Under the pieces are notes generated by a model that saw nothing but the letters and a program-made list of their open reading frames with translations, had not been told where the DNA came from and searched no databases. A DNA stretch of 11,336 nucleotides from a virus (taxonomy: Duplodnaviria; Heunggongvirae; Uroviricota; Caudoviricetes). Position numbers and translations under genes: made by a program. The stretch's first letter is position 1, and each line of letters begins with the position of its first letter. Shown one piece after another: positions 372-7,061 of the stretch. The DNA is taken from IMG/VR virus record IMGVR_UViG_2681813135_000008. One strand, 5' to 3'.

Positions 372-1883
372 CTGATGGCAATTCTTGATGATGTGATTGG
401 CGTTTTTTCACCAGGATGGAAAGCGGCAAGGCTGCGTTCCCGTGCGGTGATCCAGGCTTATGAGGCCGTAAAAACGACGCGGACACACAAAGCCCGACGG
501 GAGAACCGAACTGCCGACCAGTTAAGCCAGTACGGGGCCGTGTCGTTACGTGAGCAGGCCCGTTACCTTGATAACAACCACGATCTGGTTATTGGTGTAT
601 TTGACAAGCTGGAAGAACGGGTGGTGGGGAAAAACGGGATTATTGTCGAGCCACATCCGGTATTACGCAATGGGGCCATTGCCCGTGACCTGGCTGCGGA
701 GATTCGCACCCGATGGAGTGAATGGTCTGTCAGCCCGGAAGTCACCGGGCAGTTTACCCGTCCGATGCTGGAACGTCTGATGCTTCGTACCTGGCTGCGC
801 GATGGTGAGGTGTTTGCCCAGATGGTTTCCGGGCGCATAAACAGCCTGACGCCTTCTGCCGGTGTTCATTTCTGGCTGGAGGCGCTCGAGCCGGACTTTA
901 TTCCCATGACCAGTGATGAGAGCAACAGGCTGAATCAGGGCGTGTTTGTTGATGACTGGGGGCGTCCCGAAAAATATCTGGTGTATAAAAGCCGTCCCGT
1001 ATCCGGACGGCAGATGGAAACCAAAGAAGTGGATGCAGAGCGAATGCTGCATCTTAAATTTGTTCGCCGTCTGCACCAGATGCGCGGGACGTCTTTATTG
1101 TCCGGTGTGCTGATCCGCCTCAGTGCTCTGAAAGAGTATGAAGATTCTGAGCTGACTGCAGCAAGGATCGCCGCTGCTCTGGGGATGTACATCCGGAAAG
1201 GCGACGGGCAGAGCTATGAAGCGGATGGTAATGGCAGCAAGGATAAGGAACGCGAGCTTACCATTCAGCCAGGCATTATTTACGATGATCTGAAACCCGG
1301 CGAAGAAATCGGAATGGTGAAGTCGGATCGCCCCAATCCTAACCTTGAAACTTTTCGTAATGGTCAGTTGCGTGCCGTGGCGGCGGGCAGTCGTCTGAGT
1401 TTTTCCAGTACAGCGCGCAACTATAACGGCACTTACAGCGCCCAGCGTCAGGAGCTGGTTGAATCCACTGATGGCTACCTGATCCTGCAGGACTGGTTTA
1501 TTGGTGCCGTCACCCGTCCGATGTATCGTGCCTGGCTGAAACAGGCTGTGGCATCCGGTGTTATCAGGCTACCCCGCGATCTTGACCGTTCTTCACTGTA
1601 TACCGCGGTGTATTCCGGACCGGTGATGCCGTGGATTGACCCTGTTAAGGAGGCTGAGGCCTGGAAAATCCAGATTCGTGGTGGAGCGGCGACAGAATCA
1701 GACTGGGTACGTGCTGGTGGTCGTAATCCGGATGATGTCAAACGTCGGCGCAAGGCCGAAATTGATGAAAACCGCAAGCTGGATCTGGTATTTGATACCG
1801 ATCCGGCCAGTGATAAAGGAGGCAGCAGTGCCGCAACGAAACGACATGAGCCGCAGCACACCGACGACCAGTCCGAAGAATAA
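372..1883 (+). CDS. Phage portal protein, 5'-truncated (about 503 codons present, N-terminus missing at the gap)
   Basis: Long ORF in frame 3 starting at the gap edge with no start codon, stop TAA at 1881-1883. It lies immediately upstream of, and overlaps, the prohead protease gene, which is the canonical portal position. Size fits a ~500-530 aa portal. Family assignment is by position and size, not a recognised motif. Confidence 0.7.
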   Translation: MMAILDDVIGVFSPGWKAARLRSRAVIQAYEAVKTTRTHKARRENRTADQLSQYGAVSLREQARYLDNNHDLVIGVFDKLEERVVGKNGIIVEPHPVLRNGAIARDLAAEIRTRWSEWSVSPEVTGQFTRPMLERLMLRTWLRDGEVFAQMVSGRINSLTPSAGVHFWLEALEPDFIPMTSDESNRLNQGVFVDDWGRPEKYLVYKSRPVSGRQMETKEVDAERMLHLKFVRRLHQMRGTSLLSGVLIRLSALKEYEDSELTAARIAAALGMYIRKGDGQSYEADGNGSKDKERELTIQPGIIYDDLKPGEEIGMVKSDRPNPNLETFRNGQLRAVAAGSRLSFSSTARNYNGTYSAQRQELVESTDGYLILQDWFIGAVTRPMYRAWLKQAVASGVIRLPRDLDRSSLYTAVYSGPVMPWIDPVKEAEAWKIQIRGGAATESDWVRAGGRNPDDVKRRRKAEIDENRKLDLVFDTDPASDKGGSSAATKRHEPQHTDDQSEE

Positions 1884-3855
1884 TTCCTGGTTCAGGATGC
1901 AGGCTGGTCACCAGAGTGACGCGGATATTTATATTTATGACGAGATTGGTTTCTGGGGTGTTACAGCGAAGCAGTTTATCAGTGATCTGAATGCACTGGG
2001 CGATATCACCCACATTAATCTCCATATTAATTCACCGGGTGGCGATGTCTTTGAAGGCATCGCCATTTTTAATGCGCTGAAAACACATGGTGCGTCCATT
2101 ACCGTTTATGTCGACGGTGTGGCGGCGTCAATGGCGTCGGTCATTGCGATGGTGGGAAACCCGGTCATTATGCCGGAAAACACCTTCATGATGATTCATA
2201 AACCATTTGGCTTTACGGGCGGTGATGCGGAGGACATGCGCACCTATGCCGACCTGCTCGATAAAGTTGAGGCGGTTCTGTTACCCGCTTATGCACAGAA
2301 AACCGGGAAAACCACCGATGAAATTGCTGCCATGCTGGCGGATGAGACCTGGATGTCCGGTGCCGAATGTCTGGCACATGGATTTGCTGATCAGGTAACG
2401 CCAGCCGTTAAGGCAATGGCATGTATTCAGTCAAAACGTACAGAGGAATTTAAAAAGATGCCGGAATCCATTCGAAACATGATTACTCCGCCACGCAACA
2501 GTGCTCCACGCGTACAGGATAATGAACCTGAAGCCTCCCGGACGCCAGTGCAGGCAGCAGCACCCGTGGTGGATGAAAACAGCATCCGTGCGCAGGTACT
2601 GGCAGAGCAAAAAGCGCGTGTAAACGGTATTAATGATCTGTTTGCCATGTTTGGCGGGCGTTATCAGACGCTGCAGGCTCAGTGTCTTGCCGATCCTGAA
2701 TGTTCGCTGGAGCAGGCCCGCGAAAAGCTGTTGAACGAGATGGGGCGCGAGTCCACGCCATCCAATAAAAATACCCCGGCTCATATTTATGCCGGTAACG
2801 GTAATTTTGTGGGGGACGGGATCCGCCAGGCGCTGATGGCGCGTGCCGGATTTGAAAAAACCGAACGTGATAATGTCTACAACGGGATGACCCTGCGTGA
2901 ATATGCCCGTATGTCACTGACTGAACGGGGTATTGGGGTTTCCAGTTATAACCCGATGCAGATGGTCGGTGCGGCGTTCACACACAGTACGTCTGACTTC
3001 GGTAATATTCTGCTGGATGTTGCGAACAAAGCCATTCTGCAGGGCTGGGAAGATGCCCCTGAAACCTATGAACAGTGGACGCGGAAAGGTCAGTTGTCTG
3101 ATTTTAAAATTGCCCATCGTGTGGGTATGGGTGGCTTCAGTGCTCTGCGTCAGGTGCGTGAAGGGGCGGAATATAAATACGTCACCACCGGAGATAAACA
3201 GGCCACTATTGCACTGGCGACCTATGGCGAGCTGTTCAGTATCACCCGTCAGGCCATTATCAATGATGATCTGAATATGCTGACCGATGTCCCGATGAAA
3301 CTGGGCCGTGCGGCGAAATCCACTATTGCCGATCTGGTTTATGCCATTCTGACGTCTAACCCGAAAATCTCCACAGATAATGTAAGTCTGTTCGATAAAG
3401 CGAAACATGCAAACGTACTGGAGAGCGCTGCAATGGACGTGGCATCGCTGGATAAAGCCCGCCAGTTGATGCGCGTTCAGAAAGAGGGGGAGCGTCATCT
3501 GAATATTCGTCCTGCGTTCGTACTGGTACCGACGGCGATGGAGTCTGTTGCTAACCAGGTCATTCGCTCCTCAAGTGTCAAGGGGGCTGACATTAACGCC
3601 GGTATTATTAACCCGGTGAAAGATTTTGCGACCGTTATTGCAGAGCCTCGTCTTGATGATAACAGCCAGACCACCTTCTACCTGGCTGCGTCAAAAGGCT
3701 CCGATACGATTGAAGTGGCTTATCTCAACGGTGTGGATACGCCATATATTGATCAGATGGAGGGCTTCAGTGTGGATGGCGTGACAACGAAAGTGCGTAT
3801 TGACGCCGGTGTCGCGCCAGTTGATCACCGCGGTCTGGTGAAATGTACGGCGTAA
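1846..3855 (+). CDS. Prohead protease (ClpP-like serine peptidase) - scaffold-like linker - major capsid protein, fused in one ORF (669 codons from ATG 1846)
   Basis: N-terminal region has ClpP-type motifs: GVAASMASV with Ser codon at 2128-2130, and MMIHKPFG with His codon at 2197-2199 (compare E. coli ClpP ...AASMG... and ...IHQP...). A low-complexity P/A/Q/E-rich linker follows (about 2400-2900), then a ~300-aa C-terminal domain ending at TAA 3853-3855, called capsid by position and size. Start is uncertain: ATG 1846, GTG 1828 (preceded by AAGGAGG at 1816-1822, spacing 5) or ATG 1897. Confidence 0.8.
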   Translation: MSRSTPTTSPKNNSWFRMQAGHQSDADIYIYDEIGFWGVTAKQFISDLNALGDITHINLHINSPGGDVFEGIAIFNALKTHGASITVYVDGVAASMASVIAMVGNPVIMPENTFMMIHKPFGFTGGDAEDMRTYADLLDKVEAVLLPAYAQKTGKTTDEIAAMLADETWMSGAECLAHGFADQVTPAVKAMACIQSKRTEEFKKMPESIRNMITPPRNSAPRVQDNEPEASRTPVQAAAPVVDENSIRAQVLAEQKARVNGINDLFAMFGGRYQTLQAQCLADPECSLEQAREKLLNEMGRESTPSNKNTPAHIYAGNGNFVGDGIRQALMARAGFEKTERDNVYNGMTLREYARMSLTERGIGVSSYNPMQMVGAAFTHSTSDFGNILLDVANKAILQGWEDAPETYEQWTRKGQLSDFKIAHRVGMGGFSALRQVREGAEYKYVTTGDKQATIALATYGELFSITRQAIINDDLNMLTDVPMKLGRAAKSTIADLVYAILTSNPKISTDNVSLFDKAKHANVLESAAMDVASLDKARQLMRVQKEGERHLNIRPAFVLVPTAMESVANQVIRSSSVKGADINAGIINPVKDFATVIAEPRLDDNSQTTFYLAASKGSDTIEVAYLNGVDTPYIDQMEGFSVDGVTTKVRIDAGVAPVDHRGLVKCTA

Positions 3856-3879
3856 ACGTCGCAGACAACAACTCTGATG

Positions 3880-3898
3880 GCCCGTAAGGGCTTTTTTT
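3880..3898 (+). terminator. Putative weak intrinsic terminator/attenuator downstream of the capsid gene
   Basis: GCCC(3880-3883)-GTAA-GGGC(3888-3891): 4-bp GC stem with a GNRA-type loop, followed immediately by seven T (3892-3898). The stem is short, so this is likely partial at best. Confidence 0.4.
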
Positions 3899-3909
3899 GT
3901 ACCTGAAAT

Positions 3910-3941: not shown

Positions 3942-4265
3942 ATGGCAAAGAATTTTGTAGAAGAAGGAAAAACGGTGGCGATTGTTGCCAGTGCAGCCAT
4001 CAGCAGCGGAGATCTGGTGCAGGTGGGTGATGTTTTTGCGGTGGCGCTGACCGATATTCCACAGGGTGAAACAGGCGACGGCATGACCGAAGGTGTGTTT
4101 ATCCTGCCTAAACTGAAAACGGATGACATGAAAACGGGTAAGAAGGTTTATCTGAAGTCCGGAAAAGTTCAGCTGACTAACAGCGGCTCTGATCCGCTGG
4201 TCGGGGTTGTCTGGGCAGATGCCGGAACCAGTGCAGAAGAAGTGCCGGTAAAACTCAATGTCTGA
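3942..4265 (+). CDS. Small head-associated protein (107 aa), FI-position; resembles DUF2190-type small capsid-associated proteins from memory
   Basis: ATG 3942 preceded by GGAG (3932-3935, spacing 6); stop TGA 4263-4265 overlaps the next start (ATGTCTGA). Sits between the capsid and the FII-like gene. Functional call is by position and weak recollection only. Confidence 0.6.
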   Translation: MAKNFVEEGKTVAIVASAAISSGDLVQVGDVFAVALTDIPQGETGDGMTEGVFILPKLKTDDMKTGKKVYLKSGKVQLTNSGSDPLVGVVWADAGTSAEEVPVKLNV

Positions 4266-4533
4266 TCCCTTTTCCCGGCTGGCAGCGCGTATGGATGCGA
4301 TCACGGTCAGAAAGATGGGAAAGACAGCCTCGATTAATGATGTCGATATGGCTGTGATCCCGGGCGAAACACTGGCAGAGCTGAATGCTCTGTCCGGACC
4401 TGCGGTCTCTCTGGTGGTGTTTTCTTCGGGATACCGCCCACGGCGCGGGGATCGCGTTGTTTATGACGGACAACAATGGACGGTCACACGGCATGAACGT
4501 TTTAACGGTAAGCCAATGATCTTTATTGAGTAA
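4258..4533 (+). CDS. Head-tail joining / head completion protein, lambda FII-like (91 aa)
   Basis: Translation MSDPFSRLAARMDAITVRKMGKTASI...PRRGDRVVYDGQQWTVTR... follows the pattern of lambda FII as I recall it (M-DF--LF-A-----T-RGYMGTSA-I ... LRRGDTLTIGEENFWVDRV). Position is immediately before Z-U-V. Confidence 0.65.
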   Translation: MSDPFSRLAARMDAITVRKMGKTASINDVDMAVIPGETLAELNALSGPAVSLVVFSSGYRPRRGDRVVYDGQQWTVTRHERFNGKPMIFIE

Positions 4534-4544
4534 AGAGGTGTGGG

Positions 4545-5123
4545 ATGAAGGGGCTTGAGAATGCCATCCGCAATCTGAACAGCCTTGATACCCGTATGGT
4601 GCCACAGGCCAGCGCATGGGCGATAAACCGTGTGGCACAGAAAGCGGTCTCGGTTGCCACCCGGCAGGTTGCCGGGAATACCGTTGCGGGAGATAACCAG
4701 GTGAAAGGGATCCCCCTGAAACTGGTACGTCAGCGTGTCCGGGTGTTTAAAGCCAGTCCGTCAGGAAAAATGACGGCCAGGATCCGCGTTAACCGGGGCA
4801 ATCTGCCCGCCATTAAGCTGGGGACAGCCCGGGTCAGACTGGCCCGGCGTGGTGGAAAACTGCAGTACCGTGGCAGTGTGCTGAAGGTGGGTAAATATCT
4901 TTTCCGGGATGCGTTTATTCAGCAACTGGCGAATGGTCGCTGGCATGTGATGCGGCGTATTGATGGCAAAAATCGTTACCCCATTGATGTGGTGAAAATC
5001 CCGCTTTCCGGACCGCTGACACAGGCATTTGAAGATGCCCGCGACCGCATCATTGCTGCGGAAATGCCGAAACAGCTGGGGTATGCACTGAAACAACAAC
5101 TGAGGTTATGGCTGACCCGATGA
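4545..5123 (+). CDS. Z: Minor tail protein, lambda Z-like (192 aa)
   Basis: ATG 4545 with AGAGG at 4534-4538 (spacing 6). 192 codons, the same length as lambda Z, and directly upstream of and overlapping the U homolog (ATGA at 5120-5123). Confidence 0.65.
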   Translation: MKGLENAIRNLNSLDTRMVPQASAWAINRVAQKAVSVATRQVAGNTVAGDNQVKGIPLKLVRQRVRVFKASPSGKMTARIRVNRGNLPAIKLGTARVRLARRGGKLQYRGSVLKVGKYLFRDAFIQQLANGRWHVMRRIDGKNRYPIDVVKIPLSGPLTQAFEDARDRIIAAEMPKQLGYALKQQLRLWLTR

Positions 5124-5521
5124 ACCGACATACACAAATCCGCCAGGCCGTACTGGCACGCCTTCGGGAACAGTGTGGAGACAGCGCCACGTTTTTTGAC
5201 GGGCTTCCGGCATTTATTGATGCGCAGGAACTGCCTGCCGTGGCGGTGTGGCTGAGTGATGCTCAGTACACCGGAAAAATGACGGATGAAGATGACTGGC
5301 AGGCTGTTCTGCATATTGCTGTCTTCATCCGGGCACAGGCACCGGATTCAGAGCTGGATATGTGGATGGAGAGCACCATTTTCCCGGCTCTGAATGATAT
5401 ACCGGCACTTTCCGGACTCATCGACACCCTGATCCCTCTCGGTTTTAACTATCAACGTGATAATGAGATGGCCACCTGGGCGATGGCGGAAATCACGTAC
5501 CAGATCACGTACACGAATTAA
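5120..5521 (+). CDS. U: Tail terminator protein, lambda U homolog
   Basis: Translation MNRHTQIRQAVLARLREQCGDSATFFDGLPAFIDAQELPAVAVWLSDAQYTGK...AVLHIAVFIRAQAPDSELDMWMESTIFPALNDIPALSGLIDT... aligns along its length with lambda gpU (MKHTELRAAVLDALEKHDTGATFFDGRPAVFDEADFPAVAVYLTGAEYTGE...). Start 5120 is chosen by alignment and the ATGA overlap; ATG 5108 is the alternative. Confidence 0.85.
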   Translation: MNRHTQIRQAVLARLREQCGDSATFFDGLPAFIDAQELPAVAVWLSDAQYTGKMTDEDDWQAVLHIAVFIRAQAPDSELDMWMESTIFPALNDIPALSGLIDTLIPLGFNYQRDNEMATWAMAEITYQITYTN

Positions 5522-5532
5522 AGGAGGTGGCA

Positions 5533-6276
5533 ATGACCACACCAAATCCACTGGCAAAAACGAAAGGTGCGGGAACGACGTTCTGGATGTACACCGGCAA
5601 GGGCGATGCGTTTGCGAACCCTTTATCGGACACTGACTGGCTGCGTCTTGCGATGGTGAAGGATCTGCAACCTGGCGAAATGACCGCTGATGCAGAAGAT
5701 GACACTTATCTCGATGATGAAGATGCAGACTGGAAAACGACAACCCAGGGGCAGAAATCCGTCGGTGATACTTCGGCGACGCTGGCCTGGCGTCCGGGTG
5801 ACAGCGGACAGAAAAAACTGGTTCAGTTGTTCGACTCCGGTGAAGTCTGCGCGTTTCGTATCAAATATCCCAACGGCACTGTTGATGTTTTCCGTGGCTG
5901 GCTGAGCTCACTGGGTAAAACCATTGCCTCAAAAGACGTGATGACCCACACAGTGAAAATCAGCGGTGTGGGGCGTCCGTATCTGGCAGAGGAAGGCACT
6001 GAAACAGTGAGCGTTACCGGGCTGACGGTGGCACCGGCATCTGCCAGTGTAAAAGTGGGAGCAACCACCACGCTGACCTTTACAGTAAAACCTGACGGAG
6101 CCAGTGACAAAGCGATCAGTGTGCATTCGACAGATCCACAGACTGCCACGGTGACCCTGAACGGGCTTGTGGCCACGGTGAAAGGCGTGAAGCAGGGCAG
6201 TGTCAGCATTGTGGGCATGACTTCTGACGGCGATTTTGTGGCAGTGGCTGCGGTGGCTGTCAGCGCCGCAGGTTAA
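5533..6276 (+). CDS. V: Major tail tube protein, lambda V homolog, with C-terminal Ig-like domain
   Basis: AAGGAGG at 5521-5527, ATG 5533. Translation MTTPNPLAKTKGAGTTFWMYTGKGDAFANPLSDTDWLRLAMVKDLQPGEMTA...YLDDEDADW...FRIKYPNGTVDVFRGW... closely matches lambda gpV ([52 protein letters not shown]...). The C-terminal ~90 residues have the T/V/S-rich Ig-like pattern. Stop TAA 6274-6276. Confidence 0.9.
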   Translation: MTTPNPLAKTKGAGTTFWMYTGKGDAFANPLSDTDWLRLAMVKDLQPGEMTADAEDDTYLDDEDADWKTTTQGQKSVGDTSATLAWRPGDSGQKKLVQLFDSGEVCAFRIKYPNGTVDVFRGWLSSLGKTIASKDVMTHTVKISGVGRPYLAEEGTETVSVTGLTVAPASASVKVGATTTLTFTVKPDGASDKAISVHSTDPQTATVTLNGLVATVKGVKQGSVSIVGMTSDGDFVAVAAVAVSAAG

Positions 6277-6296
6277 CAGGACGATACTCATCATTT

Positions 6297-6320
6297 GCCC
6301 CGGTTATCCGGGGCTTTTTT
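6297..6320 (+). terminator. Rho-independent terminator/attenuator between V and G
   Basis: GCCCCGG(6297-6303)-TTAT-CCGGGGC(6308-6314): perfect 7-bp GC stem, followed by TTTTTT (6315-6320). It lies in the 60-bp V-G spacer. Confidence 0.6.
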
Positions 6321-6336
6321 GCAGGTGGAGAACATG

Positions 6337-6723
6337 ATGTTTCTGAAACAGGGCACGTTTAATTATGAAAAGCAGTCCGTGGTGCTCAGTGAGCTGTCCG
6401 GGCTGCAGAGAATTGAATATCTGGCGTTTGTTCAGCAGCGAACGGCAAAGTTTGATGCCGAAGAGGGAGAACTGCCGGAGGCTGAACGACAGATTGCTTT
6501 TCTGCGGATGGGGATGGATATCAATGCCTGGCTGGTTTCCCGCTCACTGTGGAATGCGGAACAGTCTCAGGATGTTGAGACGCTTTGCGCATCCGTTATT
6601 ACAACATGGTCGTATGATGCCCTGGGAGCGGGGGCGGAGATGGTTCTGTCGCTGAGCGGTATGGGAGCCATTGAGAATGCCGGGGATTTGGAGCATGAGG
6701 TGCTGACGCCGGAAAAGTCCTGA
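6337..6723 (+). CDS. G: Tail assembly chaperone, lambda G homolog (zero-frame product)
   Basis: GGAG at 6327-6330, ATG 6337 (second ATG of ATGATG). Translation MFLKQGTFNYEKQSVVLSELSGLQRIEYLAF... matches lambda gpG (MFLKTESFEHNGVTVTLSELSALQRIEHLAL...). Stop TGA 6721-6723. Confidence 0.8.
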   Translation: MFLKQGTFNYEKQSVVLSELSGLQRIEYLAFVQQRTAKFDAEEGELPEAERQIAFLRMGMDINAWLVSRSLWNAEQSQDVETLCASVITTWSYDALGAGAEMVLSLSGMGAIENAGDLEHEVLTPEKS

Positions 6724-7061
6724 CGCGGGAAATGCAGTTTGTCATGCGGCTTGCCCGGGAGTTCAGGCGGGCAGACTGGCGGCGGATGCTGTCGGAAATG
6801 TCGGCCACTGAGCTTGGTGAGTGGGGCGATTATTTCCGGATGCAGAGCTTCAGTGATGTGTGGATGGATGCGCAGTTTGCCTCGCTGAAGGCATTGATCG
6901 TGAGAATGGTGTCCGGCAGCAGTGATGCTGCGGTGGCTGATTTCAGCCTTTTACCGGAAGAGAACGGGATACCGGAGCGAACGGACGAAGAACTGATGCA
7001 TCTTGGGGAAGGTATTTCCGGAGGTGTGCGTTATGGACCAGATAGCCAACCTGGTCATTGA
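6337..7061 (+). CDS. T: Tail assembly chaperone GT fusion, made by programmed -1 ribosomal frameshift near 6711-6717
   Basis: The -1 frame opens at 6699 (stop TGA at 6696-6698 upstream) and stays open to TGA 7059-7061, overlapping the last 8 codons of G. It has no plausible own start with an RBS. The arrangement is the conserved G/GT recoding of lambda-like tail modules. Confidence 0.65.
6711..6717 (+). other. Candidate slippery heptamer for the G/GT -1 frameshift
   Basis: GGAAAAG, read G-GAA-AAG in the zero frame, is the only A-AAG-type site inside the 25-nt window where both frames are open (6699-6723). Lambda uses GGGAAAG at the equivalent position. Confidence 0.5.

Follow-up and report, generated by a model that had tools for sequence, protein, structure and literature searches.

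The window analyzed here is an 11,336-nucleotide (nt) stretch of DNA from a tailed virus of the class Caudoviricetes (IMG/VR record IMGVR_UViG_2681813135_000008), and our subject is the long gene that follows the portal gene on its plus strand. In a single reading frame, this gene encodes a ClpP-like protease, a scaffold-like middle region and a major capsid protein. It is the known 'tripartite capsid gene' of Gifsy-2-type lambdoid phages, a reading that is correct and already published and curated. The coordinates of the gene, of its parts and of its neighbors are collected in Table 1.

An initial annotation, made from the letters alone, had placed the fused frame at 1846-3855. Translation of this interval (+) does yield an unbroken frame of 669 codons with no stop, and the open reading frame (ORF) that contains the gene is open from 1636. 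The start, however, is probably elsewhere, namely at GTG 1828, i.e., 18 nt (six codons) upstream in the same frame. This GTG lies 5 nt past AAGGAGG, and the corresponding duplex with the anti-Shine-Dalgarno sequence, at -11.6 kcal/mol, is the strongest among all in-frame starts. ATG 1846 has no Shine-Dalgarno sequence, and an Arg codon takes its place among the database relatives examined (NDRSRS, vs. NDMSRS in the window). Because of both Shine-Dalgarno strength and conservation, we conclude that GTG 1828 rather than ATG 1846 is the likely true start; ATG 1897, the start given in the mEp460 record, was rejected on the same grounds. The common database form of the fusion protein has 675 amino acids (aa), and RefSeq WP_023281930.1, which lies on DNA 100% identical to the window, corresponds exactly to 1828-3855. 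Residues are numbered below according to this 675-aa form, except in the spans of the Pfam and NCBIfam matches. The Met variant at 1846-1848 is also present in several complete E. coli genomes with a 100% match.

Table 1. Features of the fusion gene and its surroundings, in window coordinates.
Feature	Position	Strand	Evidence
Portal gene (lambda-family)	375-1883	+	Pfam Phage_portal_2, E 5e-82; phrog_21; RefSeq
Shine-Dalgarno AAGGAGG (1816-1822) and GTG start codon (1828-1830)	1816-1830	+	Anti-Shine-Dalgarno pairing; sequence
Fusion gene coding sequence (ClpP-like prohead protease / scaffold / major capsid protein)	1828-3855	+	ORF, 675 aa; RefSeq, NF045540 and Gifsy-2 matches
ClpP-like (peptidase S14-type) protease domain	1918-2400	+	Pfam match
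Catalytic Ser codon, Ser95 (669-aa form) / Ser101 (675-aa form)	2128-2130	+	Aligned to ClpP active-site Ser
Catalytic His codon, His118 (669-aa form) / His124 (675-aa form)	2197-2199	+	Aligned to ClpP active-site His
Asp-Glu pair at ClpP catalytic Asp position	2341-2346	+	Alignment to 1y7o ClpP
Speculative nested start: GAGGAA (2443-2448), in-frame ATG (2458-2460, Met211)	2443-2460	+	Motif and synonymous conservation
Hypervariable, indel-rich P/A/T/Q-rich spacer, predicted disordered	2494-2562	+	Alignments; residues 223-245, pLDDT <50
Conserved three-helix domain, presumed internal scaffold	2575-2748	+	AlphaFold; NCBIfam coverage
Second flexible segment, candidate maturation-cleavage region	2767-2799	+	Residues 314-324, pLDDT <50
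HK97-fold major capsid protein domain	2806-3852	+	Pfam, profile, model
Terminator-like hairpin and T-run	3879-3902	+	Scan match; rho-independent terminator annotated at same place in mEp460
Head decoration (cement) protein gene	3942-4265	+	Pfam Phage_cement_2, E 1.3e-20; phrog_122 head decoration
91-aa protein gene, Pfam family 'Gifsy-2' (PF13856)	4258-4533		Pfam

Domains of the fusion protein

The C-terminal domain is an HK97-fold capsid protein, a conclusion we base on profile matches to solved capsid proteins and on an AlphaFold model. Residues 371-666 match Pfam PF25209 (Phage_capsid_4) with an E-value of 2.3e-54, and a match to Mu-like_gpT was obtained too. A family profile of this domain matches the solved capsid proteins 8rkc/8rkx at E 4e-12 and 9jod at E 1e-10; a search of solved structures with the single sequence of the capsid domain was marginal (E 2.7e-4). 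The AlphaFold model of the fusion protein was computed from a 115-sequence alignment, drawn from a search of 1.84 billion cluster representatives, and has a mean predicted local distance difference test score (pLDDT) of 87. An earlier model, computed from 27 close relatives of at least 76% identity, reached a pLDDT of 35 and was discarded. The initial annotation would have been overturned by a C-terminal domain of another fold; by Pfam, profile and fold model alike, this domain has the capsid fold. In a comparison of six divergent homologues, the strongest synonymous-site conservation in the gene falls at ~3025-3084 (residues 400-419), possibly a trace of recent recombination rather than an RNA element.

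The N-terminal domain is matched by Pfam PF00574 (CLP_protease) over residues 25-185 with an E-value of 2.7e-36, as the initial annotation had anticipated for a profile search of this end. Both Pfam matches exceed chance expectation by far. That annotation had also singled out 2128-2130 and 2197-2199 as catalytic Ser and His codons. Both codons are correct, namely TCA, for the Ser within GVAASMASV, and CAT, for the His within MMIHKPFG, and in an alignment to solved ClpP structures the two residues are in register with the active-site Ser and His. The motifs GxAASM and MIHxP likewise agree with active ClpP. The position of Ser101 is invariant among close relatives and is occupied by Ser in 87 of the 115 diverse homologues, while that of His124 is occupied by His in all 115. 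In a fast alignment, three phages that have no ClpP Pfam match (two of them with a match to S78) differ in the sequence that ends the protease region. Against the ClpP equivalog models, the fusion protein stays well under threshold (59.7 bits for TIGR00493, vs. a cutoff of 308.6), and the PRK models score far under their cutoffs. As judged from sequence, the domain is ClpP-like and not canonical ClpP.

What lies between these two domains had been described as a scaffold-like linker rich in P, A, Q and E. The scaffold-like character of the middle was borne out, but this region is really a disordered P/A/T/Q-rich spacer plus a conserved three-helix domain; four parts are distinguished by the AlphaFold model and the alignments. 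Two short helices follow the protease domain, whose end lies near residue 200 in the model. They are followed by the spacer, in which identity drops to 33% and a 15-column insertion occurs, among relatives that are elsewhere 76-99% identical. The three-helix domain (residues 250-307) consists of helices 250-273, 280-288 and 294-307, with blockwise pLDDT values of ~85-97, and is covered by both NCBIfam 'scaf_prot_MCP' models; it is a candidate internal scaffold, like the delta domain of HK97. Finally, the second flexible segment sits between the helical domain and the capsid fold. In the model, the flexible stretches are candidate regions for the cleavages that would free the capsid protein. 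Just past the protease domain, a hydrophobic residue followed by Pro (Pro212, 2461-2463) is kept in 103 of the 115 diverse fused homologues; this site is far more conserved than its flanks and could be a processing or docking motif.

Family, distribution and gene neighborhood

The fusion protein scores 986 bits against NCBIfam NF045540 (scaf_prot_MCP1), for which the cutoff is 475, and its residues 26-668 cover positions 2-651 of the 652 in the model. The name of this family is 'ClpP-like prohead protease/major capsid protein fusion protein', which is also the name that RefSeq gives to the identical protein. Among the features that mark its members, the following are found here: an N-terminal ClpP-related protease with its Ser and His, a C-terminal HK97-fold capsid domain, and a position right behind the portal gene in a head module that lacks a separate capsid gene. 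PHROG 133 also matches the fusion protein end to end. By contrast, the protein falls outside NF045541 (scaf_prot_MCP2), the already curated family of S78-type fusions: it reaches 400.6 bits vs. a cutoff of 525, over residues 217-666 only, and has no match to Peptidase_S78.

At the DNA level, mEp460, cdtI, Ayreon, Tritos and further phages share more than 99% identity with this sequence. The fusion gene is carried by 2,125 (~40%) of 5,426 complete E. coli genomes, and its ORF is intact in 2,017. The family of the capsid domain comprises 10,631 clusters at 50% identity (E <=1e-3). Among the best 148 of its representatives, ~110 are fusions, since they are 600-800 aa long with the capsid domain at the C-terminus. 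Phages of Pseudomonas, Hafnia, Stenotrophomonas, Bordetella and Rhodobacter carry fused genes, as does an archaeal virus; a tail-sheath gene is found near the one in the Bordetella phage. In Rhodobacter phage RcOceanus (gp8, 1454-3496) and Bordetella phage PBb002 (1421-3511), the scaffold-capsid part is preceded by an N-terminal Peptidase_S78. That is, the type of protease is exchanged, S78 for ClpP-like, at the same fused position.

Several deposited phage genomes label the gene 'head-tail preconnector protein Nu3', 'protease C', 'terminase protein' or 'head maturation protease', and because of these labels its capsid role is hidden in those records. Automatic capsid-finding tools overlook the fusion gene (PMC8814770), because many records label it only as protease, scaffold, Nu3 or terminase. 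Its identification is of some practical use in annotation. Overall, the significance is small: the architecture has been known from Gifsy-2 since 2010, has its own NCBIfam and PHROG families, and is correctly named in thousands of genomes.

The portal gene overlaps the start of the fusion gene by 56 nt. Between the portal and tail genes there is no separate scaffold or capsid gene, just as the initial annotation had stated; only the genes for the cement protein and for the 91-aa Gifsy-2-family protein are found there. Nor does the head module contain another protease gene. The presence of the cement gene next to the capsid gene suggests that the shell is stabilized non-covalently rather than by cross-links of the HK97 type. 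These two genes are separated by a GC hairpin, which could reduce the expression of the downstream genes relative to that of the capsid gene. The 91-aa protein carries conflicting database names ('ATP-binding sugar transporter', 'minor tail protein', 'DNA breaking-rejoining protein'); given where its gene lies, it may be a head-tail connector.

In BLASTP comparisons with lambda, identities of 25-92% are found for the tail genes Z, U, V, G, T, H, M and L. At E 1e-3, the same comparison gives no match between the fusion or decoration protein and lambda C, Nu3, D or E, and the portal is only 22% identical to its lambda counterpart. The claim that the region is mosaic therefore holds, since the head lacks detectable similarity to lambda C, Nu3, D and E while the tail genes from Z to L are lambda homologues. 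A non-lambda head joined to a lambda tail is the normal make-up of this phage group; the order of portal, fusion, cement and connector/tail genes is likewise found in mEp460, Gifsy-2, MD8 and LLS. Within the tail module, the homologue of lambda L (10437-11336) is 92% identical to it, vs. 50-56% for Z, U, V and M and 25% for H (4545-10427), and this jump in identity at L suggests a recombination junction close to position 10,430. The letter N occurs in two runs of exactly 10, at 361-370, at the junction between a gpW-like gene and the start of the portal gene, and at 11133-11142, in the lambda L homologue; both look like masking rather than biology.

Proposed maturation and alternative explanations

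We estimate at about 0.93 the probability that this is the head-shell gene of a Gifsy-2/mEp460-type lambdoid prophage of E. coli, encoding one 675-aa protease-spacer/scaffold-capsid polypeptide. This reading is built on what is observed in the window and its relatives, namely the identities of the domains, the conserved catalytic residues, both folds, the synteny, the orthology with Gifsy-2 and the wide distribution. Processing, its cleavage sites and the scaffolding role we infer; homology to Gifsy-2 suggests that the polyprotein processes itself, as the initial annotation had supposed.

For the likely mechanism, we rely on Gifsy-2 as a homologue and on the way in which HK97 and lambda heads generally mature. 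On the portal, the C-terminal domains would form a T=7 procapsid in which the protease and scaffold parts point to the inside. Crowding within this shell would activate the protease, through Ser101 and His124, probably with Glu173. The protease would then cut the polyprotein in its flexible segments and digest both itself and the scaffold, leaving the capsid domain alone, at ~35-40 kDa. DNA packaging would expand the shell, and trimers of the cement protein would stabilize it.

No finding speaks against this proposal, but it has limits. In the alignment to 1y7o, the catalytic Asp of ClpP corresponds to a Glu (codon 2344-2346) with an Asp directly before it. Close relatives keep both residues of the pair without exception; across the 115 homologues, 68 have Glu and 10 have Asp at the aligned position. 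As the aligned residue is Glu and not Asp, the triad can be assigned only tentatively at its third position. Placement of the cleavage sites is guesswork, guided by low-confidence segments of the model. In the searchable literature, we found no experimental, structural or biochemical work on this exact phage or variant. Lastly, if the full-length product were the only one, a protease domain would be present on each of the ~415 shell subunits, an unusual 1:1 stoichiometry.

This stoichiometry leaves room for a second, internally initiated product. In the Gifsy-2/mEp460 clade, the frame would then yield both the full-length polyprotein and a protease-less scaffold-capsid protein of 465 aa, starting at ATG 2458. 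Nine of nine lineages that are 48-77% identical to the window protein retain the in-frame ATG and, 9-12 nt ahead of it, an [A/G]GGA core; in these lineages, the codon pair bearing the motif encodes EE, QE, KE, KD or GD (RE in a tenth, truncated contig). Acidic stretches, however, produce Shine-Dalgarno-like strings by chance, and Met137, within the protease domain, scores about equally. Similarly, synonymous-site conservation at residues 199-206, just upstream, ranks second of 605 windows along the gene, but it is equaled in windows without any start codon, probably as a result of mosaic recombination. In the AlphaFold model, Met211 is placed just past the end of the protease domain and ahead of the disordered spacer, and gene callers choose the equivalent of ATG 2458 where the upstream part is frameshifted or missing. 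Met is nonetheless found at this position in only 16 of the 115 homologues, most of the distant ClpP-type fused homologues having Ala, Val or Ile, and the duplex energy at ATG 2458 is modest (-5.5 to -8.8 kcal/mol, vs. -11.6 for the main start). Homologues of only 443-470 aa, which begin at the equivalent of Met211, were considered as naturally split genes; of the two that were checked, one is a frameshifted copy and the other comes from a truncated contig. There are parallels for such an arrangement, i.e., lambda Nu3, which is nested in C, and HK97 gp5, which has its own delta domain. The controls for the nested start at 2443-2460 are weak, and we regard a second product as unlikely. If it were made, copies of the protease would be a minority in the procapsid, and the protease-to-shell ratio would be set by translation, as for lambda C/Nu3 but inside the capsid gene.

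It is highly improbable, in our judgment, that the ClpP-like domain has no catalytic activity and acts only as additional scaffold, with maturation carried out by a host protease or not at all. The Glu aligned to the catalytic Asp would fit such a loss, and the usual 7-fold ring of ClpP would seem impossible for domains attached to hexamers and pentamers. Yet the catalytic Ser and His are conserved as described above, an acidic residue is kept at the third position, and the two motifs match those of active ClpP. In related phages the same position is taken by an S78 protease, and this replacement by a different type of protease argues that protease function is what is selected. The head module, moreover, offers no other protease gene.

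We give practically no credence to the idea that the long ORF is a sequencing or assembly frameshift artefact that merges separate protease and capsid genes, which the initial annotation had named as grounds for withdrawing its reading: such artefacts do exist around this gene in the databases, as portal-plus-fusion 'proteins' of 1,159 aa and as one split version, but the split copy derives from the fused gene by a frameshift, the single ORF is intact in the 2,017 E. coli genomes and in isolated phages of E. coli, Salmonella, Pseudomonas and Hafnia, the fused frame recurs with an S78 protease in the distant Rhodobacter and Bordetella phages, and the curated NCBIfam model spans the entire fusion protein. 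The 'portal + protease + capsid' database proteins (1,080-1,159 aa) were also considered as products of programmed frameshifting, and this was rejected, as the frame switches at differing places. Because their frame junctions fall at different places in the overlap region (1636-1883), we attribute these giant proteins to indel errors in assembly.

Comparison with known systems

The head-shell polyprotein proposed here can be set beside several known systems. Bacterial ClpP (S14) has Asp at the catalytic position at which the fusion domain has Glu. In addition, the fusion protease is tethered to the capsid protein and would not be expected to act as a free tetradecamer together with a Clp ATPase.

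In HK97, the N-terminal extension of an HK97-fold shell protein is removed by a co-assembled serine protease, and the shell has T=7 symmetry. The window gene resembles HK97 in that its product includes a shell protein of the same fold (gp5, with its delta domain). In HK97, however, the protease, gp4, is encoded by a separate gene and belongs to the S78 family, whereas that of the window is ClpP-like and fused. The shell of HK97 also acquires covalent cross-links, whereas in the window phage the next gene is that of a cement protein.

The lambda head performs the same task in a lambdoid genome. There too, protease and scaffold are joined (C/Nu3) and the decoration protein is trimeric, according to established knowledge and PMC8538268. 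Lambda C, on the other hand, carries the annotation of an S49-family peptidase, and the capsid protein of lambda has a gene of its own, whereas the window gene is fused and its protease is ClpP-like. The initial annotation had cited, as an analogy, the covalent gpC-gpE products X1 and X2 (pX1/pX2) of lambda. These are an old report, now regarded as possibly artefactual (PMC3224144), and the analogy is not to be relied on.

Another comparison is with the NF045541 fusions, e.g., RcOceanus gp8 and that of PBb002, which have homologous scaffold and capsid parts and likewise follow the portal gene, but carry an S78 protease.

A close relative is the gene of Gifsy-2. Effantin et al. 2010 (Virology 402:355) are reported to have described there a single gene that encodes, besides a ClpP-like protease and the capsid protein, a middle domain of ~200 residues that may act as a scaffold. 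The window protein is 70% identical to the product of Gifsy-2 STM1034.3n over 669 aligned residues, and 86% identical in the capsid domain. The tripartite capsid gene of Gifsy-2 is credited to that study in PMC12315714, and two further sources give the Gifsy-2 capsid as T=7 (PMC8814770) with trimers on the 3-fold axes (PMC8538268). Gifsy-2 differs from the window phage in its host, Salmonella rather than E. coli, in the sequence of the spacer, and in an annotated start further upstream (696 aa). It shares the architecture of the gene and the gene order, namely portal, fusion, decoration, Gifsy-2-family protein and lambda-like Z, U, V, G, T and H. By sequence and synteny, the window gene is the orthologue of the Gifsy-2 tripartite capsid gene.

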